From a virus (lineage: Duplodnaviria > Heunggongvirae > Uroviricota > Caudoviricetes), in the IMG/VR virus record IMGVR_UViG_2711768010_000018: a DNA stretch of 46,353 nucleotides. One strand, written 5' to 3'. Position 1 is the first letter of the stretch, and every line of letters starts with the position of its first letter. The position numbers and the translations under genes were made by a program. The notes beneath the pieces are model-generated. The model did no database searches, was not told the DNA's origin, and was given only the letters and a program-made list of their open reading frames with translations. Positions 2,794-46,353 of this stretch are shown piece by piece.

Positions 2794-5386
2794 TTGCATA
2801 TTCCTTAGCCCAGCGGGGCAGTGATAACGTCTTAATAGCTGGCCATTCATCGGTATTGAGGCAGTCAGCCAGGGTTCGCAGATTGCGGTGATATTCCAGC
2901 TGACCTGCCAGTTTTGCTTCTTCGCCCATCATGAAAATTTCAACCGGATAACGTCCGCATTCAATAGTTGTGCTGGCAACCAGAAAAACGAAAGTTGGCT
3001 GCACTCCAAACTGTGCTTCATAACCGTCACTGTAGAATGCATCCTGAACGTGATAGCGGTAGTCGTAATAAGCGGTTTTGAATCGTTGAATATCCGCCGT
3101 AGTTTTCACGTCCATGATCCAGTGAAATTCAGGGATAATTTTGTCCGGACGGCACCGACACAAAATTGCTGTTTCAGGATCTTCCCAGTAAATTGATGAT
3201 TCAGCGTGTCCGGCGCTTTCAACAAGCCATTGCCCCAGCGGCAAAGCCATAACGCTCTGATACATGAGTTCAATTTTCCGGCCTTCTTCGGCAGTGATAA
3301 CCGTTTTTCCTGTGCTTGCGCATTCCCTCAGAAACGCTTTCTCTTCTTCTTTTCCGGAGTTTGTCCGGCGGTTAAATTCAGGTGCTACGATAAAGCGGTT
3401 ACTGAATTCTTCCGGCTCAAGTACCCGGCAGTGGAAAGCGGTTCCTAAATCGAGCGTTTTTGTCTTTGTGGTGTCCACGGGGGCATTTTTACGCCACAAA
3501 TACAGTGCCGGAGTATCAGCAATGTCATCGAGCTGAGACTTACTGACACCGGGACCCGCGTGGTAATTCTCATTCGAAATTCCGTAATAAATACCTGGCT
3601 CTATGTCTTCTACGATTACGGGATCTGCGACTTCGCCAGTTTCATCACTGCAATCGCGATGCGGATCGCTGCCAGCATTCTCATTGTGCGGATGTTCAGC
3701 GCCTTCCATTTCCTCCGGATCATTTTCCTTAGCTTCAACCTGACTCTCTTCATCGAATGTTTCCTGGTATGTTGCGTCGCCCATCACCGCACCACAGTCA
3801 GGGCAGTTATCCCCGCCAGTCTGGCCGCAGGCATTGCAGGCTATTTCCGGTTCCTGTTGCACTACTGGCTCAGGTTGATTCATATCCGGGCTGGTTTTTT
3901 CCGTTTCTGGCTGGTTCTGGTACACACAATCGCGAGTCTGGATCCCCTTTACCCATTTCGGATCGTTCGGGTCGCTAATTCCGTCAACAAATTCACCACG
4001 TGATGCAGCAAGCAATTTATCGGCATCGACAGGATTTTTTGATGGAATGTTTTTCCGGGCTTCATGGAGTTCTGCCCGCAGTTCCTGATATTTCGCATCA
4101 ACAGAATTTACCTGTGACTGAGCATCCAGCGGCTGCGTGTCCTGATGATGTTCAGTTGCGTCCGGTTCCATTGTTTCAGCCTCTCCCTGTTCAACTGCCG
4201 TTGTTCCAGATGGTTGCGGTTTTTCTTCATCATCCTGTTTTCCTTCTTCTGTTACTCGCTGCGGCATCGGGGCAGAGGAGCGACCGCAGGCAATATCCAC
4301 GATTTCCGGATCAGGGTTGGCATGATCGGTTTCAGTCAGTACTTTGTTCAGATATTCAGTGACGTGCGCGGGGATGACCTCGATCCCAATTGGTGCTTCT
4401 TTTACGGACGCAACCACGATGGCGCGGGAATAATCCAGCCCGCCAGGCATGGTGATGAATTTGTCGCGGAAAACAGAAAAGGGCGGTTTATTTTCAGCGA
4501 TAATTTCCTCAATGCGTTTAGCGTGTGCCGGATGAAGGTTATAGATGTCCAGATCCATTGAACGGGCCAGTACGCCAGTGGCTACGTCCCGCGCCAGTGA
4601 CGTCAGATCGTGTACGAAACCTTCGCCGCGATCGGTGAGGTTTCCGCCGCCAGCATTAGCACCGGAAGCCGTGCGAGTGATGTGTGAAACACGATTACCC
4701 TTCATCCACTCTTTTGTCAGCAGTCCTCGATCGGTGTAGTCAGCGTTCAGGTATGCTTCGAAAAAAGCAGTTATCAGTCCCAGGTTTGAATTACCAGGAT
4801 TAGGGAAAACTTTGTCAGTGTCACGAACCAGTTTGTGGAGTTCGCGAATTTCCAGCGGGTCGAGCAGGCTGGTTTTGTGGGAAACAGCCAGGGCAGTAAC
4901 AGCCGGTAGTTCTTCAGCCCGAGCAATGTGTAATGCCTGGAGTCCGTCGCGTGAAACGTGCGTTACCGGTTTTTCGCTGCCGTGTTGAGCAAGCCAACGA
5001 ATGGGCAGTTCCTGGCCAGAAATTGGGAGTAGCATATTCTCCTCAATCTCAGGCATGTCTTCGCCGTTGACGTTGGTATTGCCTTGATAGTGAGCGTTGT
5101 CTGGTGCTGCTCCCGGTTTTAGTTCCCATGTCATGGAGTCTTTGCTGAGTTGATAGCGTTCACTCCAGGTAAAATCGATCTCACCTTCAGCGGGCAGGTC
5201 ATTAACGACAGGAAAATTCGTGGCAACAGCTTTAAAATAGCTGCTCAGTTTTTTACCTGACTTAACGATCAGGTAGTCCAGAGTGGCACAGGTCGATTCA
5301 AAATCGTTGCTTGCCCACAGGACGACGTCAGGTTCACCGGATGATTTTTTCGCTTTCCGTAACAGGAAGAGTGGTTTTGTGCTCAT
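2786..5386 (-). CDS. recE: RecE exonuclease VIII, 866 aa
   Basis: 866 aa ORF with ATG at 5384-5386, immediately upstream of recT on the same strand; length and C-terminal nuclease region consistent with RecE. Confidence 0.92.
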
Positions 5387-9795: not shown

Positions 9796-10542
9796 ATGAA
9801 AAATATTGCGACAGGCGACGTTCTTGAACGTATCCGCAGACTGGCCCCGTCACATGTAACCGCGCCATTCAAGACGGTAGCGGAGTGGCGCGAGTGGCAA
9901 CTTTCCGAAGGCCAGAAACGTTGTGAGGAGATCAACCGTCAGAATCGTCAGTTGCGGGTGGAAAAAATTCTGAATCGCTCTGGCATCCAGCCATTGCACC
10001 GCAAATGCTCGTTTTCGAATTACCAGGTGCAGAACGAAGCGCAGCGATACGCGTTGAGTCAGGCGAAATCCATCGCTGATGAACTGATGACCGGGTGTAC
10101 AAATTTTGCGTTCAGCGGAAAACCTGGTACCGGGAAGAACCACTTAGCGGCAGCTATCGGGAATCGCCTGCTGAAAGACGGTCAGACAGTGATTGTGGTT
10201 ACCGTGGCTGATGTTATGAGTGCCCTGCACGCCAGCTATGACGATGGGCAGTCAGGCGAAAAATTTTTGCGGGAACTATGCGAAGTGGATCTGCTGGTTC
10301 TTGATGAAATTGGCATTCAGCGCGAGACGAAAAACGAGCAGGTGGTGCTGCACCAGATTGTTGATCGCCGGACAGCGTCGATGCGCAGCGTGGGGATGCT
10401 GACAAACCTGAACTATGAGGCCATGAAAACATTGCTCGGCGAGCGGATTATGGATCGCATGACCATGAACGGCGGGCGATGGGTGAATTTTAACTGGGAG
10501 AGCTGGCGTCCGAATGTCGTCCAGCCAGGAATTGAGAAGTAA
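9796..10542 (+). CDS. ydaV: DnaC/IstB-like AAA+ helicase loader, 248 aa
   Basis: Walker A motif [13 protein letters not shown] and Walker B LLVLDEIG visible in the translation. Confidence 0.85.
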
Positions 10543-19623: not shown

Positions 19624-20170
19624 TGCCTCCATCATTACGAAAAGTCGTTGCTGCTGCTATTGGTGGCGGAGCAATTGCTATAGCATCAGTGTTAATCACT
19701 GGCCCAAGTGGTAACGATGGTCTGGAAGGTGTCAGCTACATACCATACAAAGATATTGTTGGTGTATGGACTGTATGTCACGGGCATACAGGAAAAGACA
19801 TCATGCTCGGTAAAACGTATACCGAAGCAGNNNNNNNNNNNNNNNNNNNNNNNNNNNNNNNNNNNNNNNNNNNNNNNNNNNATGCAAAACACTCTTGAAT
19901 AAAGACCTTGCCACTGTCGCCAGACAAATTAACCCGTACATCAAAGTCGATATACCGGAAACAACGCGCGGCGCTCTTTACTCATTCGTTTACAACGTGG
20001 GTGCTGGCAATTTCAGAACATCGACGCTTCTTCGCAAAATAAACCAGGGCGATATCAAAGGCGCATGTGACCAGCTACGTCGCTGGACATATGCTGGCGG
20101 TAAGCAATGGAAAGGTCTCATGACTCGTCGTGAGATTGAGCGTGAAATCTGTTTGTGGGGTCAGCAATGA
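19623..20170 (+). CDS. SAR endolysin (phage-21 R-type lysozyme), interrupted by a 51-N run at 19831-19881
   Basis: N-terminal SAR segment ([18 protein letters not shown]), then lysozyme-like sequence; the two track ORFs (19623..19898 and 19895..20170) are the two halves of one gene split by the N-run. Confidence 0.8.
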
Positions 20171-20631: not shown

Positions 20632-20768
20632 AATCTTAACTACAATATGATTCATTTTGATGATTGTTTCATAAGGAACAGTGAAGTAAGATCTAAGAGG
20701 AGTTAAATTTTATACAGTATAATCATAATATTGCAGCAAGGTGGTTATAATTGAAAGAATATTTAGAT

Positions 20769-22226
20769 ATGAATACATCTCATGTAAGAGTTGTTACTCA
20801 TATGTGTGGGTTCCTGGTTTGGCTCTATAGTCTTTCAATGTTGCCACCAATGGTTGTAGCATTGTTTTATAAAGAAAAAAGCCTGTTCGTTTTCTTTATA
20901 ACTTTCGTTATATTTTTTTGCATTGGTGGCGGAGCGTGGTATACAACTAAGAAATCTGGCATTCAATTACGTACCCGTGATGGGTTTATTATAATTGTAA
21001 TGTTTTGGATTTTGTTTTCTGTTATTAGTGCATTCCCTTTATGGATTGACTCAGAACTTAATTTAACGTTCATTGATGCTCTGTTTGAAGGGGTTTCTGG
21101 AATAACAACAACAGGAGCAACTGTAATTGATGATGTTAGTTCATTACCTCGGGCATATTTGTACTATCGGTCACAGTTAAATTTTATAGGTGGTTTAGGA
21201 GTTATTGTTCTGGCGGTTGCAGTATTGCCATTATTGGGTATTGGTGGTGCAAAGCTTTATCAGTCAGAAATGCCGGGGCCATTTAAGGATGACAAACTCA
21301 CTCCCCGCCTGGCCGATACGTCACGGACACTGTGGATAACTTATTCTTTATTAGGTATTGCTTGTATTGTCTGTTATAGACTTGCAGGAATGCCTTTGTT
21401 TGATGCTATTTGTCACGGGATTTCCACAGTTTCGCTTGGTGGTTTCTCAACTCATAGCGAGAGTATCGGATATTTTAATAACTATTTGGTTGAGCTGGTG
21501 GCTGGTTCTTTTTCCCTGCTATCGGCTTTCAACTTCACTCTTTGGTATATTGTTATTAGCAGAAAAACGATAAAACCTTTAATCAGAGATATTGAACTTC
21601 GTTTCTTTCTGTTAATAGCCTTAGGGGTGATCATTGTTACCTCTTTCCAGGTCTGGCATATAGGTATGTATGACTTGCATGGAAGTTTTATTCATTCGTT
21701 TTTTCTTGCCAGCTCCATGCTCACTGATAATGGTTTAGCTACGCAGGATTATGCAAACTGGCCCACGCACACGATAGTGTTTTTGCTGTTGTCAAGTTTC
21801 TTTGGGGGATGTATAGGTTCAACCTGTGGTGGAATTAAGTCACTTCGATTTCTTATACTTTTCAAACAAAGCAAACACGAGATAAATCAGCTTTCTCATC
21901 CCAGAGCGTTGTTGAGTGTAAATGTAGGAGGGAAGATAGTTACAGATCGTGTAATGAGGTCTGTATGGAGTTTCTTTTTTCTTTATACTCTCTTCACGGT
22001 GTTTTTTATACTGGTGTTAAATGGTATGGGATATGATTTTCTTACATCATTTGCAACAGTGGCTGCATGTATTAATAATATGGGATTAGGTTTTGGGGCT
22101 ACTGCATCGTCATTCGGAGTGCTTAATGACATTGCAAAATATTTAATGTGCATAGCTATGATTCTTGGTCGCCTTGAAATTTATCCTGTTATTATATTGT
22201 TTTCAGGTTTTTTTTGGCGCTCCTAA
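20769..22226 (+). CDS. trkG: TrkG potassium uptake transmembrane protein (TrkH/TrkG family), about 485 aa from MNTSHVRVVTHM...
   Basis: Polytopic membrane protein; AT-rich moron between the lysis and packaging modules, as in Rac; ORF track 20751..22226 with the internal Met at 20769 matching the recalled TrkG N-terminus. Confidence 0.88.
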   Translation: MNTSHVRVVTHMCGFLVWLYSLSMLPPMVVALFYKEKSLFVFFITFVIFFCIGGGAWYTTKKSGIQLRTRDGFIIIVMFWILFSVISAFPLWIDSELNLTFIDALFEGVSGITTTGATVIDDVSSLPRAYLYYRSQLNFIGGLGVIVLAVAVLPLLGIGGAKLYQSEMPGPFKDDKLTPRLADTSRTLWITYSLLGIACIVCYRLAGMPLFDAICHGISTVSLGGFSTHSESIGYFNNYLVELVAGSFSLLSAFNFTLWYIVISRKTIKPLIRDIELRFFLLIALGVIIVTSFQVWHIGMYDLHGSFIHSFFLASSMLTDNGLATQDYANWPTHTIVFLLLSSFFGGCIGSTCGGIKSLRFLILFKQSKHEINQLSHPRALLSVNVGGKIVTDRVMRSVWSFFFLYTLFTVFFILVLNGMGYDFLTSFATVAACINNMGLGFGATASSFGVLNDIAKYLMCIAMILGRLEIYPVIILFSGFFWRS

Positions 22227-22363: not shown

Positions 22364-23152
22364 ATGAGCGAGAAATTAAAGATAGTCTATCGCCCATTAC
22401 AAGAATTGTCACCGTATGCGCACAACGCCAGGACGCACAGTACTGAGCAGGTGGCACAACTGGTAGAAAGTATTAAGCAATTCGGCTGGACTAATCCGGT
22501 GCTGATTGACGAAAAGGGCGAAATTATTGCGGGTCACGGTCGTGTTATGGCGGCTGAAATGCTCAAAATGGATTCTGTTCCGGTCATTGTTCTGTCTGGC
22601 CTGACGGATGAGCAGAAAAAGGCGTACCGCCTGGCAGATAATCGCCTGCCGATGAATGCTGGCTGGGATGAAGATCTGTTGCGGATGGAGCTGTCGGACC
22701 TAATCAATGCTGATTTTGATGTCTCCCTGACAGGCTTCATCCCGGCAGAAATTGATGAACTGTTGACGGATGTTTTGCCCGGTACAGGAAATGAGGAGGA
22801 GCCGTATACGACGAAAATTGATACGCCTGTTTATGAGCCGTCAGGCGGTAAACCGGATATCAGTGAACTGTACGACGATACGAAAACTCAGGAGCTGATC
22901 AGCCGGATACGTTCGGCGTCCCTTGATCCTGATATTGAGAAATTCCTCCTGTGTGCAGCAGAACGTCACACGGTGTTTAATTTCAGCAGAATTGCGGACT
23001 ATTACGCTCATGCCCCCGCTGAAATTCAGTGCCTTTTCGAGGAGTCGGCGCTGGTGATCATTGATTATCAGCAGGCTATTGAAAATGGATTTGTCCGAAT
23101 GACGCAGCGCATGGTGGAGATCATGCATGGCGGGGAGGAGGAATATGCGTGA
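22364..23152 (+). CDS. ParB-like nuclease domain protein, 262 aa
   Basis: N-terminal ParB/Srx-like motif (...NPVLIDEKGEIIAGHGRVMAA...) upstream of the terminase genes, a position commonly occupied by ParB-N proteins in siphophages. Confidence 0.7.
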   Translation: MSEKLKIVYRPLQELSPYAHNARTHSTEQVAQLVESIKQFGWTNPVLIDEKGEIIAGHGRVMAAEMLKMDSVPVIVLSGLTDEQKKAYRLADNRLPMNAGWDEDLLRMELSDLINADFDVSLTGFIPAEIDELLTDVLPGTGNEEEPYTTKIDTPVYEPSGGKPDISELYDDTKTQELISRIRSASLDPDIEKFLLCAAERHTVFNFSRIADYYAHAPAEIQCLFEESALVIIDYQQAIENGFVRMTQRMVEIMHGGEEEYA

Positions 23153-24077
23153 TGATTTTTGCGCCTTTATTCTGACTCACGGGCGACCGGACAAAGTTCT
23201 GACTTACCGGACGTTGCGTCGTGCTGGCTATACCGGGAAAATTTTTATCGTTGTTGATGATGAAGATAAGACACGGCATCAGTACATGGCTGAATTTGGT
23301 GAACAGGTGCTGGTATTTTCCAAAGCCGATATTGCTAGTCGTTTTGACGAAGCCGATAATTTTAGTGACCGCCGCTCAATTTTTTACGCCCGTAATGCCT
23401 GTTTCGACCAGGCAAAACTGGTCGGGTGTAAATACTTCATTCAGCTCGATGATGATTATCACGAGTTCCAGTTTCGGGTGGATCGCAACTATGACCAGGC
23501 CTATTTCCCGATAAGGAAACTGGATGAGATCCTTTCTGAAATGCTTGCGTACTACGAATCAATACCTGCTCTTTCCATCGCTATGTCGCAGGGCGGGGAT
23601 TTTCTTGGTGACAATGGCGGCCATGCTTCGTGGGTGAAACGCAAGGCAATGAACAGCTTTATCTGTTCGGTTGATCGACCGTTCTCATTCATGGGGCGCA
23701 TTAACGAGGATGTGAATACGTACACGAATCTCGGTCGCTGTGGTGAATTGTTTATGACGATCGGTGCTGTCCAGTTAGGGCAGAAACAGACGCAGAAAAA
23801 CAGCGGCGGAATGACCGAGCTGTATCTGGATTCCGGAACCTACGTTAAAAGTTTTTACTCCGTCATGTATGCGCCGTCGTGCGTAAAAATCTCACTTATG
23901 GGTGCCAGTCATAAACGCATTCACCATCAGGTCACCTGGAACAACGCTGCAGTAAAAATCCTTCACGAAAAATACAGGAAGAAGACACCCTGCATATCAA
24001 TGGGGGTGACAAATGATTCCGTATTCGAAAGTCGAGTCTCTGGCAGCGTGCCGGATGACTGCACAACAAATCGCTGA
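23145..24077 (+). CDS. Hypothetical protein, 310 aa, with acidic DxD-like motifs (possible GT-A-like fold, uncertain)
   Basis: ORF track 23127..24077; the ATG at 23145 is preceded by GGAGGAGG and overlaps the ParB-like stop; motifs VVDDEDK and QLDDDY; function not recognised. Confidence 0.5.
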   Translation: MRDDFCAFILTHGRPDKVLTYRTLRRAGYTGKIFIVVDDEDKTRHQYMAEFGEQVLVFSKADIASRFDEADNFSDRRSIFYARNACFDQAKLVGCKYFIQLDDDYHEFQFRVDRNYDQAYFPIRKLDEILSEMLAYYESIPALSIAMSQGGDFLGDNGGHASWVKRKAMNSFICSVDRPFSFMGRINEDVNTYTNLGRCGELFMTIGAVQLGQKQTQKNSGGMTELYLDSGTYVKSFYSVMYAPSCVKISLMGASHKRIHHQVTWNNAAVKILHEKYRKKTPCISMGVTNDSVFESRVSGSVPDDCTTNR

Positions 24078-24264
24078 CGTTCTGGATGTTGATCTGAACC
24101 GACTGAAAGAAAATCGGGAAGCAATGACAGATTTTTATGCGGCCATCCGTAAGGGCAGAGCGAAAGGTGAAGCCGAGTTACGAGCGGCATTGTTTAAGCT
24201 TGCCAGAAAAGGGGATGCCTTTGCTCTGCGCGAACTACTCAGGGTGGATAAAAATCAGGACTAA
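24052..24264 (+). CDS. Small putative HTH protein, about 70 aa
   Basis: ORF track 24013..24264 with internal Met MTAQQIADVLD...; immediately upstream of the terminase small subunit. Confidence 0.4.
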   Translation, partial: RMTAQQIADVLDVDLNRLKENREAMTDFYAAIRKGRAKGEAELRAALFKLARKGDAFALRELLRVDKNQD

Positions 24265-24267
24265 CTG

Positions 24268-25362
24268 ATGAGCAGACCGGACTGGGGGGCGTTGCAGCAG
24301 GAGTATATTGCTGAATACACCCGCTCCGGTATATCTCCGGTGGCATGGTGTGAAGCAAGGGGACTGAATTACGCAACAGCCCGTCGTTACATCAAAAAAA
24401 CTCCGAAAAATGCGCAGACAGAAATGTGCAAAACTGCGCAAAAAAGTGCGCAGAAAAAATCTGCGCAGACTGCACAAAAGCGGAACGAAAAATCTCAGGA
24501 AAAAAAGCCAGTATTCGATGCGGGCCTGAATGAGGGCGACGCGGAGGAATTTTCGTTCTGTCCCGATGAATTCGGCATTTCTGACCAGCAGGCTAAGTTT
24601 GCGATGCTTGTTGCTCAGGGTAAAAAGCCGACAGAGGCGTACCGACTAGCCGGTTATGAGGGGCAAGGTGCGACAGCTAACAGCAACGCCAGTCGTATGC
24701 TTAGAAATGCCAGGGTTTTTCGCGCTATCAGCTACTTCCGCAATCAGTACCAGAAACGCTATACCGCAGACCTGGATTTACTAGTGAGTCAGTTGATGGC
24801 TATTGTCCTGGCCGACCCCAATCAGCTTGCACAATTTCGCCGTGTTAACTGCCGTTATTGCTGGGGCGAGAATCATCTCTACCAGTGGCGCGATATAGCA
24901 GAATTCGACAAGGCAGCGGCGCAGGCTTCCAGAGATGGCAAACCCGAACCGGAATATGGAGGCCTCGGCTTTGTTGATAACGCCATACCCAATCCGGACT
25001 GCCCGAAGTGCTGCGGTGAGGGAACGGGACAGCTTTATATGGCTGATACCACTCTGCTTGATGGGGATGCGCGGCAATTATATGCAGGGGCAAAATTCGG
25101 AAAATTCGGCGTTGAGATCCTGCTGGAGGATAAGGCTGCCGCCCGGCGTGAATTGTTGCGTTTGTTTTCTGCTGGCGGGGCTTTATGTGCAGATAAGCGG
25201 CTACGGGAACTGGAAATTGAACGGCGCAGAATGGAAAACCAGAAGCTGCGCAAAGAGATCGAAACGGTGGAAGATAATGAACATCCCCAGCCTGTGGCGA
25301 TCAATATTAATGTGGTTGATGCCAGAGTAAGGAGTGATGAAGATGATCTCTCCGACGCTTAA
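24268..25362 (+). CDS. Terminase small subunit (N-terminal HTH, central Terminase_2-like region), 364 aa
   Basis: Position directly upstream of the large terminase; region ...FGISDQQAKFAMLVAQGKKPTEAYRLAGYEG... resembles small-terminase DNA-binding domains; contains the TGCGCA repeat cluster. Confidence 0.65.
   Translation: MSRPDWGALQQEYIAEYTRSGISPVAWCEARGLNYATARRYIKKTPKNAQTEMCKTAQKSAQKKSAQTAQKRNEKSQEKKPVFDAGLNEGDAEEFSFCPDEFGISDQQAKFAMLVAQGKKPTEAYRLAGYEGQGATANSNASRMLRNARVFRAISYFRNQYQKRYTADLDLLVSQLMAIVLADPNQLAQFRRVNCRYCWGENHLYQWRDIAEFDKAAAQASRDGKPEPEYGGLGFVDNAIPNPDCPKCCGEGTGQLYMADTTLLDGDARQLYAGAKFGKFGVEILLEDKAAARRELLRLFSAGGALCADKRLRELEIERRRMENQKLRKEIETVEDNEHPQPVAININVVDARVRSDEDDLSDA
24411..24476 (+). 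repeat. Cluster of TGCGCA(G) hexamer repeats inside the small terminase gene
   Basis: TGCGCAG at 24411, 24447 and 24463, TGCGCA at 24435, variants TGTGCA at 24426 and TGCACA at 24471, spaced 8-16 bp. Confidence 0.6.
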
Positions 25363-26644
25363 TGTGCCTCAGGCGCGATTTCTTTCAATGCCCCATAAAT
25401 TTAAAGCCTATATTGCTGGTTTTGGCTCGGGCAAAACATGGGTTGGGTGTGGCGGCATATGCAAGGGGATTTGGGAGCATCCAGGTATAAATCAGGGATA
25501 TTTTGCGCCAACGTATCCCCAAATTCGCGATATTTTTTACCCTACAGTGGAAGAAGTTGCTGCTGACTGGGGATTGAACGTAAAAATTAATGAGGGAAAT
25601 AAAGAGGTTCACTTTTATTACGGACGCCAGTATCGGGGAACCACTATCTGCAGATCGATGGAGAAGCCACAAACGATCGTCGGTTTCAAAATTGGTAATG
25701 CGTTGGTGGATGAACTGGACATTTTGCCGAAGGAAAAAGCCAGAACGGCGTGGCGCAAGATAATTGCACGTATGCGTTATAAGATTGATGGACTTCGCAA
25801 CGGTATTGACGTTACAACCACGCCGGAAGGATTCAAATTTGTCTACGAGCAGTTTGTTAAAGCCGTGCGTGAAAAAACAGAGCTGGCCTCACTGTATGGT
25901 CTGGTGCAGGCATCTACTTTCGATAATGAAAAGAACCTGCCAGCAGATTACATTCCTTCGCTTCTTGAATCATACCCTCCAGAGCTGATTAAAGCCTATC
26001 TTCGAGGACAGTTTACTAACCTGACAAGTGGTACTGTTTACCATCAGTTTGACCGGAAACTGAATAATTGCGAAGAAGTGGAGCAGCCAGGGGAGCCGAT
26101 TTATATTGGGATGGATTTTAACGTTGGAAAGATGGCGGGAATCGTCCATGTGCTGCGTTTGGGGCTTCCATGTGCGGTAACTGAAATCATCAATGCCTAC
26201 GATACGCCGGATATGATCCGCATCATTAAAGAACGCTTCTGGCTGTATGATGGGAATGATTACCGGAAAGTGAGGGAAATTTATATTTATCCAGATGCTT
26301 CCGGGGATTCCAGAAAATCAAGTAACGCAAGTACGACGGATATAGCCCAGCTTAAGCAGGCTGGTTTTAACGTTGTGGTGAACAGCTCGAACCCGCCAGT
26401 AAAAGATCGCGTTAACTCAATGAATGCAATGTTCTGCAATGCCAATGGTGAGCGTCGCTATAAAGTTAATGTGAAGCGTTGCCCGTTATATGCCGAATCT
26501 CTGGAGCAACAGGTCTGGGATGAGAAGGGGGAGCCTGATAAAAAATCTGGCAATGATCACCCGAATGATGCCGGAGGTTATTTCATCGTTAAGCAATTCC
26601 CTATTGTCAAACCGACCGGAAGAGTCACATCACTTCGGATTTAA
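25343..26644 (+). CDS. Terminase large subunit (ATPase/nuclease), about 433 aa
   Basis: Walker A-like GFGSGKTWVG near the N-terminus; ORF track 25334..26644 starts at GTG, the ATG at 25343 follows a TAAGGAG RBS. Confidence 0.88.
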   Translation: MISPTLNVPQARFLSMPHKFKAYIAGFGSGKTWVGCGGICKGIWEHPGINQGYFAPTYPQIRDIFYPTVEEVAADWGLNVKINEGNKEVHFYYGRQYRGTTICRSMEKPQTIVGFKIGNALVDELDILPKEKARTAWRKIIARMRYKIDGLRNGIDVTTTPEGFKFVYEQFVKAVREKTELASLYGLVQASTFDNEKNLPADYIPSLLESYPPELIKAYLRGQFTNLTSGTVYHQFDRKLNNCEEVEQPGEPIYIGMDFNVGKMAGIVHVLRLGLPCAVTEIINAYDTPDMIRIIKERFWLYDGNDYRKVREIYIYPDASGDSRKSSNASTTDIAQLKQAGFNVVVNSSNPPVKDRVNSMNAMFCNANGERRYKVNVKRCPLYAESLEQQVWDEKGEPDKKSGNDHPNDAGGYFIVKQFPIVKPTGRVTSLRI

Positions 26645-26646
26645 TT

Positions 26647-28053
26647 ATGGCTGATATATCAACACCCAACCTCGACTATAACGATATGCTGGAGGCGTGG
26701 GATATTAACGACGCACTGATGGGCGGTACGCTTGAAATGCGCAGGCAGGGGGAAAATTATCTCCCAAAATGGCCTAACGAAGATGAAGACGCTTATAAAA
26801 AACGCCTGTCTGTGGCTACGCTACTTCCTGTGTATGAAGAAAGCATCAAGCAAAATATTGGGCGCATATTTGCAGAGCCGACAGTATTGAGTGAGGAAAC
26901 GCCGGCAAAAATCAGGGAATATGCAGAAAATATCGACATGGAGGGGAGCCGACTGGATGTGTGGGCGCAGCAATTTTTCAGCCTCGCATTTCAGTATGGT
27001 GTGGCACATGCGCTGGTGGACTATCCACGAACGGATATGAAAGAGATTCGGACAAAAGCCGATGAAAACGCGACCGGTGGTCGTCCGTACGTTACGATGC
27101 TGAATCCACGCCAGGTTATTGGATGGAAATCGAAAGTTGAAAAAGGGAAAGTTGTTCTCACTGATTTGCGTATAAAAGAGGTCATCATTATTGATGGTGA
27201 TGATTTCGGGCAGAAGAAGGTGGAGCAGATCCGCCATATTATGCCCCGTCGAGTTGAAATTTATCGACGTAGCGAAGGCACTAATGGCGAATCTGTCTGG
27301 ACGCTTCATGAGTCATGGAATACCAGCCGTGATGATATTCCTCTGGTAACACTGTACACGAAGAAAACAGGATTTATGCGTGGTACACCGCCATTGCTTA
27401 ATCTTGGCTTGCTGAATATCAAGCACTGGCAAAGCCAGAGCGAGCAGGACAATATTCTTCATGTTGCCCGCGTTCCATTGCTGGTGGCCTACGGGCTGGA
27501 CAGGAATGAAGAACTGACGGTTGGTGCATCCACCGCTACGATTTTTGAGGACAGAACAAAAAATGGCCTCGAATATGTTGAACATAGTGGCGCAGCGATA
27601 GAATCTGGCGAAACATCACTTGAGAAGCTGGAAAATCAGATGCGTCATGCCGGCGCTAAACTTCTGCGTGCTGAAAATACATCCACCAAATCTGTTGATC
27701 AGACTAATGAAGAGCGAATGCAGGAAAACTCGCCGCTTTATACAATGGCGAACTCCCTCGAAGATGCCCTCGATAATATTCTCCAGATAATGGCGGAATG
27801 GATCGGAGAGAGTTGCGGTGGCAATGTGGATGTGCGCACTGAACTGGATGTATCTGCCCAGGTGTTTGACTCATCCTCCGCGCTGGCTGTTCAGTCATTG
27901 CGTCAGGGCGGTGATATACGTCAGATTGATGCGGTTCGGGTGTTGCAGGCGTTGAAATTTATCGATCAGGATTCCCGTCCAGAGGAAGTGATCGATGAAT
28001 TAAAAAATCAGAGTGTAATGCTGATGGAAATCAATGATGCAAACCGTGAATGA
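26647..28053 (+). CDS. Portal protein, 468 aa
   Basis: Large ORF immediately downstream of the large terminase; size and position typical of portal proteins. Confidence 0.8.
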   Translation: MADISTPNLDYNDMLEAWDINDALMGGTLEMRRQGENYLPKWPNEDEDAYKKRLSVATLLPVYEESIKQNIGRIFAEPTVLSEETPAKIREYAENIDMEGSRLDVWAQQFFSLAFQYGVAHALVDYPRTDMKEIRTKADENATGGRPYVTMLNPRQVIGWKSKVEKGKVVLTDLRIKEVIIIDGDDFGQKKVEQIRHIMPRRVEIYRRSEGTNGESVWTLHESWNTSRDDIPLVTLYTKKTGFMRGTPPLLNLGLLNIKHWQSQSEQDNILHVARVPLLVAYGLDRNEELTVGASTATIFEDRTKNGLEYVEHSGAAIESGETSLEKLENQMRHAGAKLLRAENTSTKSVDQTNEERMQENSPLYTMANSLEDALDNILQIMAEWIGESCGGNVDVRTELDVSAQVFDSSSALAVQSLRQGGDIRQIDAVRVLQALKFIDQDSRPEEVIDELKNQSVMLMEINDANRE

Positions 28054-29149
28054 ACGGCTGCGTGATGAATCAATTGCTCATGCAGTCTGGATATCCCGCT
28101 ATAGCACTGGCGTGGCTGCCAGAATGGTGAAAATACTGAATGACAGCGATGCGGAACTTACTGCTCGCCTGCTGATAGCACTGGACAGCCTCGATCCAGG
28201 TAGTTTTACCGTTAAGCGCCTGGAGTCACTTCTGGCGAGCGTCAGAGAGGTTAACCGCACTGCTATTAACAGCATGTTTACCAGTCTCTCCGGAGAGCTG
28301 AACGAGCTGGCAATTTATGAGGCTGGTTATCAGTTAAGTCTGTTTGATTCTATGCTACCTGATTTTGTTGCTGATGTTCACCCTCTGGTTGGTATCTCTC
28401 CTGATGCACTTTATGCCGCTGCAATGGCGCGACCATTCCAGGGACGACTGCTCAGTGAGTGGGCCTCAGATCTTGAGGCGGATCGGCTCAGACGCATAAC
28501 AAATACAGTGCGTCAGGGTTTTTTGCTGGGGGATACCAATGAGCAGATCGCAAGAAAAATTCGGGGACATGTCAGTAAGGGATTTCAGGATGGTGCATTG
28601 CAGATGAGCCGGGCTAATGCGGCCAGCATTGCAAAAACAGCGGTTGGACATCTTGCTGCTACTGCCCGTGAGAGTTTTGCCAGCGCGAATAATGATTTGA
28701 TTAAGGGTAAGCAATGGTTATCAACGCTTGATAATCGTACTACGCCACAATGTCGAATCAGGGATCGCCTCAAATATACGCTGAATAATAAACCTGTAGG
28801 TCACAGCGTGCCTTATTTGCAGGGGCCGGGAAAAATTCATTTCTGCTGCCGCTCAACGGAAACGTTCATTCTGAAATCAGCGAAGGAACTGGGTATTGAT
28901 GTTCGCGATATTTCCCCGGCTGAGCGGGCCAGCATGGATGGCGTGGTGGCCGGAGATACAACCTACAGGGAATGGTTTTTGCGTCAGCCTTACACCAGAC
29001 AAAAACAGATTGTGGGGGAAAGCCGAGCAAAGCTGATTCGGGATGGTGGTATGTCGCCAGATGAATTTTACACCGATAAAGGCGAATGGCTGACGCTGAA
29101 GCAGCTCCGTGAGCGTGATGCACAGGTATTCAGAAAAGCAGGGATTTAA
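28034..29149 (+). CDS. Head morphogenesis / minor head protein (SPP1 gp7 or Mu F-like), 371 aa
   Basis: Position after portal with overlapping start; typical module order. Confidence 0.65.
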   Translation: MMQTVNERLRDESIAHAVWISRYSTGVAARMVKILNDSDAELTARLLIALDSLDPGSFTVKRLESLLASVREVNRTAINSMFTSLSGELNELAIYEAGYQLSLFDSMLPDFVADVHPLVGISPDALYAAAMARPFQGRLLSEWASDLEADRLRRITNTVRQGFLLGDTNEQIARKIRGHVSKGFQDGALQMSRANAASIAKTAVGHLAATARESFASANNDLIKGKQWLSTLDNRTTPQCRIRDRLKYTLNNKPVGHSVPYLQGPGKIHFCCRSTETFILKSAKELGIDVRDISPAERASMDGVVAGDTTYREWFLRQPYTRQKQIVGESRAKLIRDGGMSPDEFYTDKGEWLTLKQLRERDAQVFRKAGI

Positions 29150-44367: not shown

Positions 44368-44388
44368 NNNNNNNNNNNNNNNNNNNNN

Positions 44389-46353
44389 TGCTGCAGGCTC
44401 AGCGCGTGCAGCCAGCACGTCAGCCGGACAGGCCGCGACTTCGGCTCAGGAGGCGTCTTCCAGCGCAGGAACGGCATCAACAAAGGCCACTGAAGCATCA
44501 AAAAGTGCTGCCGCTGCAGAGTCCTCAAAAAGCGCGGCGGCCACCAGTGCCGGTGCGGCGAAAACGTCAGAAACGAATGCTGCAGCGTCACAAAAATCAG
44601 CAGCCACTTCTGCATCCACTGCGACAACGAAAGCGTCAGAAGCCGCCACTTCAGCCAGAGATGCGGCGGCCTCCAAAGAGGCGGCAAAATCATCAGAAAC
44701 GAACGCCTCCACAAGCGCCAGCAGTGCAGCCTCCTCGGCAACGGCGGCAGGAAATTCCGTGAAGGCGGCAAAAACGTCCGAGACGAATGCTAAGTCTTCT
44801 GAAACGGCAGCGGAACAGAGCGCCTCAGCTGCGGCAGACTCTGAGACAGCAGCTGCATCATCGGCCCGTGAGGCGTCCATTAAGGCAGAGGAGGCAGCAG
44901 TCAGTGCCACCGCCGCCGGAAAATCGGCAGAAAGCGCCGCATCATCCGCTTCAACAGCCACAACGAAGGCTGGCGAAGCCACTGAACAGGCCAGCGCAGC
45001 AGCGAGGTCTGCTTCCGCAGCGAAGACATCCGAAACGAACGCGAAAGCGTCGGAAACCAGCGCAGAATCCTCAAAAACGGCTGCCGCATCGTCCGCCAGT
45101 TCGGCGGCGTCATCGGCATCATCTGCGTCTGCTTCAAAAGATGAGGCGACCAGACAGGCGTCAGCAGCGAGGGGCAGCGCCACGACGGCATCCACGAAGG
45201 CGACAGAGGCTGCTGGCAGTGCGGCAGCGGCAGCACAGAGCAAAAGTACGGCGGAATCCGCGGCAACGCGCGCCGAGACAGCAGCAAAACGGGCAGAGGA
45301 TATTGCATCCGCCGTGGCGCTTGAGGATGCGAGCACGACGAAAAAGGGGATAGTACAGCTCAGCAGTGCGACCAACAGCACTTCCGAGTCACAGGCGGCA
45401 ACGCCAAAAGCCGTTAAGGCCGCGTATGACCTGGCTAACGGGAAATACACCGCACAGGATGCAACGACAGCACAGAAAGGGATAGTTCAGCTCAGCAGTG
45501 CGACTAACAGCACTTCCGAGTCACAGGCGGCAACGCCAAAAGCCGTTAAGGCCGCGTATGACCTGGCTAACGGGAAATACACCGCACAGGACGCTACGAC
45601 AGCACAAAAAGGAATTGTCCAGCTCAGTAGTGCAACCAACAGCACATCTGAANNNNNNNNNNNNNNNNNNNNNNNNNNNNNNNNNNNNNNNNNNNNNNNN
45701 NNNNNNNNNNNNNNNNNNNNNNNNNNNNNNNNNNNNNNNNNNNNNNNNNNNNNNNNNNNNNNNNNNNNNNNNNNNNNNNNNNNNNNNNNNNNNNNNNNNN
45801 NNNNNNNNNNNNNNNNNNNNNNNNNNNNNNNNNNNNNNNNNNNNNNNNNNNNNNNNNNNNNNNNNNNNNNNNNNNNNNNNNNNNNNNNNNNNNNNNNNNN
45901 NNNNNNNNNNNNNNNNNNNNNNNNNNNNNNNNNNNNNNNNNNNNNNCAAATTTTGCCTGGGTTAATACATCTGGTGATACTTACGATATTTACGTTGCAA
46001 TCGGAAATTATGCGACTGGTGTAAATATTCAATGGGATTATACCAGTAATGCCAGCGTGACGATTCATACGTCACCAGCATATTCTGCTAATAAGCCGGA
46101 AGGGTTAACGGACGGTACAGTTTATTCACTCTATACGCCATCAGAGCAGTTTTATCCGCCTGGCGCACCAATCCCGTGGCCATCAGATACCGTTCCGTCT
46201 GGCTATGCCCTGATGCAGGGGCAGGCTTTTGACAAATCTGCATACCCGAAACTTGCAGCGGCTTATCCGTCAGGCGTGATCCCTGATATGCGTGGCTGGA
46301 CGATTAAGGGCAAACCTGCCAGTGGTCGGGCCGTATTGTCTCAGGAACAGGAC
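44389..46353 (+). CDS. stfR: Side tail fibre protein (Stf family), partial at both ends: 5' end lost in the 21-N run, internal 294-N run (45653-45946), 3' end beyond the window
   Basis: Ala/Ser/Thr-rich repetitive region matching lambda Stf as recalled ([13 protein letters not shown]...KTSETNA...); after the second N-run the hand-translated frame ([15 protein letters not shown]...[64 protein letters not shown]) is open to the window end. Confidence 0.85.
45343..45652 (+). repeat. Tandem 132-bp (44-codon) repeats within stf, at least 2.3 copies, continuing into the N-run
   Basis: Units beginning near 45343, 45475 and 45607 encode [44 protein letters not shown] with a few synonymous differences. 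Confidence 0.85.

Follow-up and report, generated by a model that had tools for sequence, protein, structure and literature searches.

The window analysed here – by which we mean the whole 46,353-nucleotide stretch of viral DNA held as IMG/VR record IMGVR_UViG_2711768010_000018 – is a full-length Rac-type lambdoid prophage of Escherichia coli, and the element that concerns us is a short array of hexamers lying within its small terminase gene, terS. This gene (24268–25362, + strand) encodes a protein of 364 amino acids (aa), which matches Pfam Terminase_2 (PF03592; 34.5 bits, with a cut-off of 26.1, over aa 122–321) and the PHROG family phrog_51 (E 7e-75), and whose 100%-identical counterparts in E. 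coli and phage records are named 'terminase small subunit'. Directly 3' of it follow terL (25334–26644, +), whose 436-aa product, the large terminase, matches Pfam Terminase_6N (E 3.7e-33) and Terminase_6C (E 3.4e-10), and the portal protein gene (26647–28053, +; PHROG phrog_145 portal at E 3.5e-165, Pfam DUF4055). The array itself – six palindromic hexamers of the TGCGCA type – occupies 66 bp at 24411–24476, corresponding to nt 144–209 of terS, and the 5' segment of this gene is found in 914 of 5,426 complete E. coli genomes. What is weighed here, and judged probable, is that the array is the part of a packaging (pac) site recognised by TerS, the protein in whose gene it lies.

TerS begins with a helix-turn-helix (HTH) domain (aa 1–44, 24268–24399, +; MSRPDWGALQQEYIAEYTRSGISPVAWCEARGLNYATARRYIKK), which is the proposed reader of the hexamers. 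AlphaFold2 places its helices at residues 6–20, 24–30 and 35–38, with a predicted local distance difference test score (pLDDT) averaging 70–81 in ten-residue blocks over aa 1–40; no Pfam model matches this N-terminal domain, and 190 cluster representatives match it at E<=1e-3. Next comes a K/A/Q-rich, probably disordered linker (aa 45–94, 24400–24549, +), which tethers the HTH to the core and carries the array; the description of the repeats in the original prediction, as encoding a low-complexity AQK-rich linker, agrees with the AlphaFold2 pLDDT of <50 over aa 44–94. The core, of the Terminase_2 type (aa 105–321, 24580–25230, +), has an HTH of its own at about aa 106–146 (block mean pLDDT 76–90 over aa 101–160), which does not stand at the very N-terminus here and instead starts at about aa 106, behind the extra HTH and some 50 residues of low-confidence linker. 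The AlphaFold2 model, built on 29 close homologues, is poor as a whole (mean pLDDT 48.9), the remainder beyond the core HTH being poorly modelled. Foldseek found no significant match to it in the PDB (best E 0.77); the DNA-binding domain of the SF6 small terminase (4zc3) gave a partial, non-significant match to the core (E 0.86), and sequence searches of the PDB with TerS and TerL returned nothing useful.

Two side observations on TerS and its HTH may be recorded here. The core contains an insert (24850–25014, aa 195–249) that holds the CxxC pairs C195/C198 and C245/C248 as well as C249; this insert is invariant in 29 homologues, has low confidence in the AlphaFold2 model and suggests a zinc ribbon. 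Separately, the N-terminal HTH gives 4–7 tandem matches in several proteins of the representative library (P0142, P0196, P0226, P0228, P0253 and P0268), one of which has 565 aa with 7 such stretches, in an architecture quite unlike that of TerS.

Direct search places the exact hexamer TGCGCA at 24411–24416, 24435–24440, 24447–24452 and 24462–24467, and one-mismatch copies at 24425–24430 (TGTGCA) and 24471–24476 (TGCACA); the four exact and two variant copies that the original prediction had read within 66 bp of the gene are thus all present. The same prediction had them spaced by roughly one helical turn, which is true only of the average: the start-to-start steps are 14, 10, 12, 15 and 9 nt, with a mean of 12, and strict helical phase is absent. 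The spacers are A-rich, the flanks follow the consensus AAAcTGCGCArA, the encoded peptide is TPKNAQTEMCKTAQKSAQKKSAQTAQK, and the hexamers form one block, beyond which terS has TGCGCA next at 25247. Over the whole window the hexamer is not enriched (20 copies, with 19.65 expected). Within 57 bp of the array, by comparison, four copies stand against an expectation of 0.025 (Poisson estimate ~5e-5), and 300 windows simulated under a first-order Markov model (Markov-1) never held more than two in a span of that length. Synonymous codons were also resampled with the peptide held fixed, and four or more copies of TGCGCA arose in only 3 of 20,000 trials; the codons that spell the hexamer – GCG for Ala, and a T ending the preceding codon – are therefore unusual choices.

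The relatives used for comparison were picked by the 44-residue HTH alone, so that the linker could not bias the choice, from one genome per GTDB species and from IMG/VR, and phage records found by tblastn were added to this set. Among them are 96 distinct terS 5' ends encoding an HTH of the ..ARRY.. type, every one of which (96/96) carries TGCGCA, in 2–8 copies within nt 121–300 (mean 4.93); the corresponding means are 1.54 in the following 1000 nt and 0.16 in the 1300 nt upstream. The hosts span Escherichia, Shigella, Klebsiella/Raoultella, Enterobacter, Citrobacter, Serratia, Pantoea, Pectobacterium and Xenorhabdus, and the Aeromonas phage phiARM81mr has seven copies behind an HTH of the ..ARRYIKK type.

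Replication slippage in a repeat that encodes a low-complexity peptide could give rise to a cluster of this kind as a by-product, with selection acting only on the K/A/Q-rich linker peptide, and several features look the part: Tandem Repeats Finder resolves the array into 12-nt and 36-nt imperfect repeats, natural linker variants differ by indels of 9, 10, 12 and 27 nt that add or remove units between the hexamers, and the region encodes a probably disordered linker. However, the hexamer persists in all three reading frames (frames 2, 1 and 0 in 372, 85 and 16 cases) with different peptides – A-Q, M/L-R-K and C-A, respectively – and it is kept while spacers and peptide diverge. Six register positions keep TGCGCA as the intervening spacers drift apart in 31 variants of the linker from the lineage of the window itself, and the two imperfect hexamers of the window (24425 and 24471) are exact TGCGCA in most relatives. 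Over codons 43–84 of 42 related genes, amino-acid diversity (0.09–0.25) exceeds synonymous diversity (0.01–0.06), and the synonymous choices within the window's array are, as the resampling indicates, far from what codon usage would give. A frameshifted terS pseudogene (L009) still retains seven hexamers, and a different hexamer occurs exactly where the HTH differs, as described below. The frame and synonymous-site analyses largely refute slippage as the explanation, and we regard it as very unlikely. Given the use of three frames, the divergence of spacers and peptide, and the synonymous-site pattern, we conclude from these alignments that the array is selected as a DNA element and not as a peptide.

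In phage Rac-SA53 (L002, 2912–3940), the annotation describes terS as fused to gene O through a deletion, with the junction at the first hexamers of the array; of the hexamers that remain, three are degraded (TTCGCA, TGCGCT and TGCCCA). We also followed synonymous diversity along terS in sliding windows as a means of placing the cut region, an attempt that was confounded by the choice of relatives and by mosaic recombination, and no cut site is claimed.

The second line of evidence is that the repeat changes with the domain that precedes it. An HTH of the ..ARRYIKK type is paired with TGCGCA. An HTH of the ..AKRYIK[IVA] type, in 16 of 16 distinct genes – including those of Klebsiella phage RothD and Yersinia phage vB_YenM_29.18 – is followed by 3–7 copies of TGCGAA/TTCGCA, often in the form of the palindrome TGCGAATTCGCA, which encodes ANSQK, and essentially without TGCGCA. 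Behind the HTH of Shiga toxin (Stx)-converting, 933W-like phages (..ARTRIKM), the same position in the linker holds four GATCAT-containing units with a 12-nt period, and then two TGCGCA. A further type, called pPE4 here, combines a near-identical Terminase_2 core (93% nt identity) with a different N-terminal HTH, and its linker carries GTTTCCAC twice and GTGGAAA twice. The converse combinations also occur: an AKR-type HTH on a Terminase_2-like core (L046, L160) goes with TGCGAA, and an ARR-type HTH on short cores unrelated to Terminase_2 (L010, L019, L022, L030, L037 and L043) goes with TGCGCA. Among the 73 loci with both HTH and array, the same TerL family is found in 34. By this comparison the repeat motif is a follower of HTH type, and not of the TerS core, TerL or the neighbouring genes.

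The pairing was also examined in reverse. In a sample of IMG/VR, 58 of the 81 listed arrays of at least three close TGCGCA copies lie within about 450 nt of an open reading frame (ORF) of the HTH family, and one of those with no family HTH nearby (L167) follows a more distant 'DW' HTH that starts another ORF. Two loci may be mentioned for their different surroundings. In L214, an array at 10006–10060 with no such HTH adjoining it comes directly after a sequence resembling the 3' end of a tRNA, possibly the end of an integrated element; in L166, triplets of TGCGCA at 4593 and 5463, likewise without this HTH alongside, are promoter-proximal, upstream of similar genes.

These distributions bear on whether the hexamers might be bound by some other protein – a host factor, a ParB/Srx-like protein or the product of the small ORF (69–83 aa) just upstream of terS. 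In the window, a ParB/Srx gene (22364–23152) and a small ORF resembling a TerS PHROG (24013–24264) do lie directly upstream. Yet among the 73 loci the ParB, TAGT (TET-associated glycosyltransferase) and small-ORF (orf83) neighbours are present in only 4–6, the small ORF in 6; and in hosts from Aeromonas to Xenorhabdus, changes of motif accompany the HTH of the phage and not the host. A binder of this sort is extremely unlikely.

As the hexamers are self-complementary, they might instead act in the mRNA, pairing into hairpins that adjust the translation of terS or the stability of its message. The RNA of 106 nt does fold strongly, at −29.8 kcal/mol compared with −18.3 kcal/mol for shuffled sequences (z = −3.9), but strong folding follows automatically from a repeated 6-nt palindrome. 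All copies have the same sequence, with no compensatory changes; odd copy numbers (3, 5, 7) are common; the arrays of the Stx and pPE4 types are direct repeats of other motifs; and no Rfam family matches within 23800–25000. We consider a role in RNA highly improbable.

The third line of evidence links this N-terminal domain to PacA, the pac-recognition subunit of phage P1, whose N-terminus is colinear with MSRPDWGALQQEYIAEYTRSGISPVAWCEARGLNYATARRYIKK of TerS and shares with it the HTH pattern ..LNxxTARRY[IL][KR]. PacA defines its own PHROG, phrog_1711 (E 4e-202), which is matched by the window's TerS over aa 6–80 (E 3.8e-5) and by the N-terminus of Stx-type TerS (E 1.4e-6); conversely, PacA matches phrog_370, to which TerS proteins of the Stx and AKR types belong (E 1.9e-4), BLASTP aligns Stx TerS with PacA at E 5e-4, and hhalign, comparing the HTH family with the N-terminus of P1 PacA, returns a P value of 1.2e-4. 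The similarity is weak, though it holds in both directions, and homology of the N-terminal HTH of TerS to PacA is no more than probable. Wider PacA relatives were gathered in order to sharpen the profile, with no gain, all 21 matches being near-identical at the N-terminus. The 161-bp pac site of P1 contains seven TGATCA/G hexamers with Dam sites, and synonymous disruption of the hexamers lowers packaging of the P1 genome about 9-fold (PMC10028697).

Because the array is conserved as DNA and changes with the N-terminal HTH of TerS, it is very probably the recognition site of the packaging enzyme. The more specific reading that we favour, and consider probable, is that, within a headful pac site, it would be the part recognised by TerS, the whole being a variant of the P1 design that has one block of hexamers, is independent of methylation and lacks both GATC and an IHF site. 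A pac or terminase recognition site was already the candidate put forward in the original prediction, with P1 as the analogue, and DNA-level conservation, co-variation with the HTH and a weak likeness to PacA together lend this strong, if indirect, comparative support. Mechanistically, several N-terminal HTHs of one TerS oligomer would bind neighbouring hexamers on phage DNA that is either concatemeric or still integrated; this binding would mark the phage genome and recruit TerL, the nuclease/ATPase, which would make the first cut somewhere near the array, and headful packaging would then run, most likely to the right, in the direction of terL and the head genes.

A different outcome of the same binding has to be considered, namely that the array is bound by TerS or another HTH protein in a regulatory role – for instance, as an operator by which TerS would hold down transcription or translation of the late operon to which it belongs – with no cut near the array and the true pac elsewhere. 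The comparative evidence points to a sequence-specific reader linked to the HTH and does not extend to the effect of binding, and the HTH of the Terminase_2 core could itself read a separate pac. Regulation is, nonetheless, unlikely. TerS is part of a terminase; P1 PacA and pacA, the one system of this layout to have been studied by experiment, use the hexamers for packaging; the module of HTH plus array occurs at the start of TerS genes and nowhere else; and the array sits deep in the coding region of a long late operon, where a promoter is not expected (an expectation with no promoter scan behind it).

Several points weigh against the pac interpretation and the comparisons behind it. In our literature search we found no binding, cleavage or packaging-termini data for phages with this type of TerS. 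The second HTH, in the Terminase_2 core, is of a kind that binds DNA in TerS proteins of the SF6/SPP1 type, and could read another site. The co-variation comprises about four HTH types and few independent evolutionary events, in sequences that are phylogenetically related, and the low synonymous diversity over nt 1–250 of terS may partly reflect the selection of relatives by HTH identity. As for PacA, the hhalign probability is only 55%, hmmsearch with the HTH-family profile scores P1 PacA at a non-significant 2.7 bits, and the 53-aa N-terminus of TerS taken alone has no match to phrog_1711. Finally, P1 PacA has ARRY in its putative recognition helix yet uses TGATCA, so that residue 39 alone does not set the motif.

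A broader proposal, which we put forward tentatively as something a little short of evenly balanced, is that the HTH and the array in its own linker form a portable, self-contained cassette for packaging specificity. Such a cassette would have been joined to no fewer than three unrelated TerS bodies and to different TerL types across Enterobacterales, Aeromonas and P1-like phages, Stx-converting phages included, with its target (TGCGCA, TGCGAA, TGATCA/GATCAT or GTTTCCAC) diversifying along with the recognition helix. The DNA-binding domain and its sites would be one and the same stretch of genome, and would therefore be inherited and exchanged together.

The remainder of the prophage may be described briefly. 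It contains recE/recT, kilR, sieB, ydaS/T-like immunity genes, a lysis cassette and trkG; the last of these, a moron gene for potassium uptake (20766–22223), stands after the lysis genes and before the ParB-like gene, as it does in the Rac prophage of K-12, a copy which we take to lack the region from terS to the head genes that the window carries. After trkG the order is ParB/Srx-like gene, TAGT/GREB1-like glycosyltransferase gene, terS, terL, portal gene, P22-type coat gene and lambda-like tail genes. The gene with the ParB/Srx N-terminal domain (22364–23152), directly upstream of the packaging genes, is overlapped by the TAGT gene (Pfam TAGT, E 4e-34), the pair spanning 22364–24077; the TAGT-matching protein is called 'GREB1-related' by PGAP (WP_001204032.1, strain AST215). 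This pair may be a DNA-modification module, and no TET/JBP enzyme or methyltransferase was found in the annotation within 20 kb on either side in E. coli strain 7/2, whose 373-bp terS 5' end, array included, is 100% identical to that of the window, as are those of FDAARGOS_448 and SEC470. The small ORF directly before terS (24013–24264) has 83 aa, or 69 aa as annotated by PGAP, whose start is equivalent to 24055, and it matches the middle of another small-terminase PHROG (phrog_309, positions 145–218 of 319, E 8e-23). The window also holds runs of non-ACGT letters, that is, masked or unknown bases, at 19831–19881, 40647, 44368–44388 and 45653–45946.

Experiments have defined pac sites in only a few phages, and mostly not in temperate enterobacterial ones; these sites also set the starting point of lateral and generalised transduction of host genes. 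For full-length Rac-type prophages a specific prediction is now available, and the same reasoning extends to prophages of Klebsiella, Enterobacter, Citrobacter, Serratia, Pantoea, Xenorhabdus, Yersinia and Aeromonas, as well as to Stx-converting phages, where the array, as in P1, is built on GATC. The design of P1 pac and PacA, long isolated, would thereby be linked to a wider class. A simple rule is suggested – inspect the linker behind a 'DW...ARRY' HTH – and nature seems to offer a specificity switch of one residue and one base, ARRY with TGCGCA as opposed to AKRY with TGCGAA. If the notion of a cassette is true, hundreds of uncharacterised prophages could have their pac sites, and the incompatibility groups of their packaging, read from sequence, and packaging specificity could be re-programmed by swapping a module of about 250 bp.

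Among known packaging systems, that of lambda offers a partial parallel. The R sites of lambda cosB are short repeats read by the N-terminal winged HTH of gpNu1, which places the large subunit for a nearby cut. The likeness lies in the use of several short repeated sites and of an N-terminal HTH of the small terminase as their reader, the latter being our proposal for TerS; the difference is that the R sites lie upstream of Nu1, work with IHF and direct a cut at cos that leaves cohesive ends, whereas the TerS array is intragenic. The window's genes also depart from a lambda-type cos arrangement in their families, TerS being of Terminase_2 and TerL of Terminase_6N/6C type, and the only match to the IHF consensus in the window, at 28690, is not near the array.

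With SPP1 and SF6 the relationship is in the core, which belongs to the same Pfam family, PF03592 (G1P). Their pac, with its pacL, pacC and pacR parts, overlaps the 5' part of terS, and the DNA around the binding sites is A-rich. In these phages, however, it is the Terminase_2 HTH that binds, through largely sequence-independent, bend-dependent contacts, whereas the TerS described here has an extra HTH at its front and a strictly repeated hexamer. In P22, pac likewise lies inside the small-terminase gene (gene 3), and synonymous 'wobble' mutants are an established test of it (PMC11260489); there, by contrast, it is a single 22-bp asymmetric site and gp3 has no HTH, where the window has an array of short palindromes together with an HTH. 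We also considered the Gally prophage of E. coli LF82, in which a pac peak has been mapped inside terS, and set it aside: its TerS (140 aa) is unrelated and provides no direct evidence here. More generally, our literature search returned no paper that ties TGCGCA to packaging, and none that maps pac in Rac-type or Stx phages.

The likely mode of packaging is best approached through the large subunit. TerL of the window is 85% identical to the TerL of a Klebsiella prophage, about 40% identical to those of Dhillonvirus and 43.5% identical to that of the Jerseyvirus Kenya-K47. For Jerseyvirus K47, headful packaging is indicated by PhageTerm and pulsed-field gel electrophoresis (PMC10783031), and because its TerL is related to that of the window, a headful pac mechanism is plausible for the window phage as well.

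Nearer still are the Stx-converting, 933W-like phages, whose TerS shares the N-terminal HTH family (about 51% identity) and has its repeat array in the linker that follows; indeed, of the phage records that match the TerS HTH, 253 in number, most are Stx-converting or Escherichia phage records. The rest of their TerS differs, and the GATCAT units of their array – at 1633–1690 in Escherichia phage vB_EcoP_phi346 (L158), for example, encoding IDHEIDHKTDHEIDH – are P1-like GATC (Dam) sites, which makes this array a candidate Dam-sensitive pac of Stx phages.

The closest comparison remains with P1 itself, and the differences are readily named. P1 pac has its hexamers in two blocks, HEX4 and HEX3, which flank a cleavage region of about 90 bp holding an IHF site, in contrast to the one block of six in terS. 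The P1 hexamers contain GATC and are under the control of Dam methylation, whereas TGCGCA has no GATC, and none occurs between 24095 and 25115, a span that takes in terS nt 1–848. The protein bodies also differ, a Terminase_2 core in TerS corresponding to the PacA body in P1, and BLAST finds no similarity between TerL and PacB. What the two systems have in common is the layout. In each, a palindromic TGNNCA hexamer is repeated in the 5' part of the gene for the recognition subunit, shortly after the part that encodes the HTH: in pacA, four TGATCA at nt 194–233, ahead of the annotated cleavage positions (nt 276–285) and further hexamers (nt 324–380), and in terS, TGCGCA at nt 144–209. The P1 hexamers, too, are read in several frames and encode a low-complexity peptide (MIIDHSNDQHAGDH).

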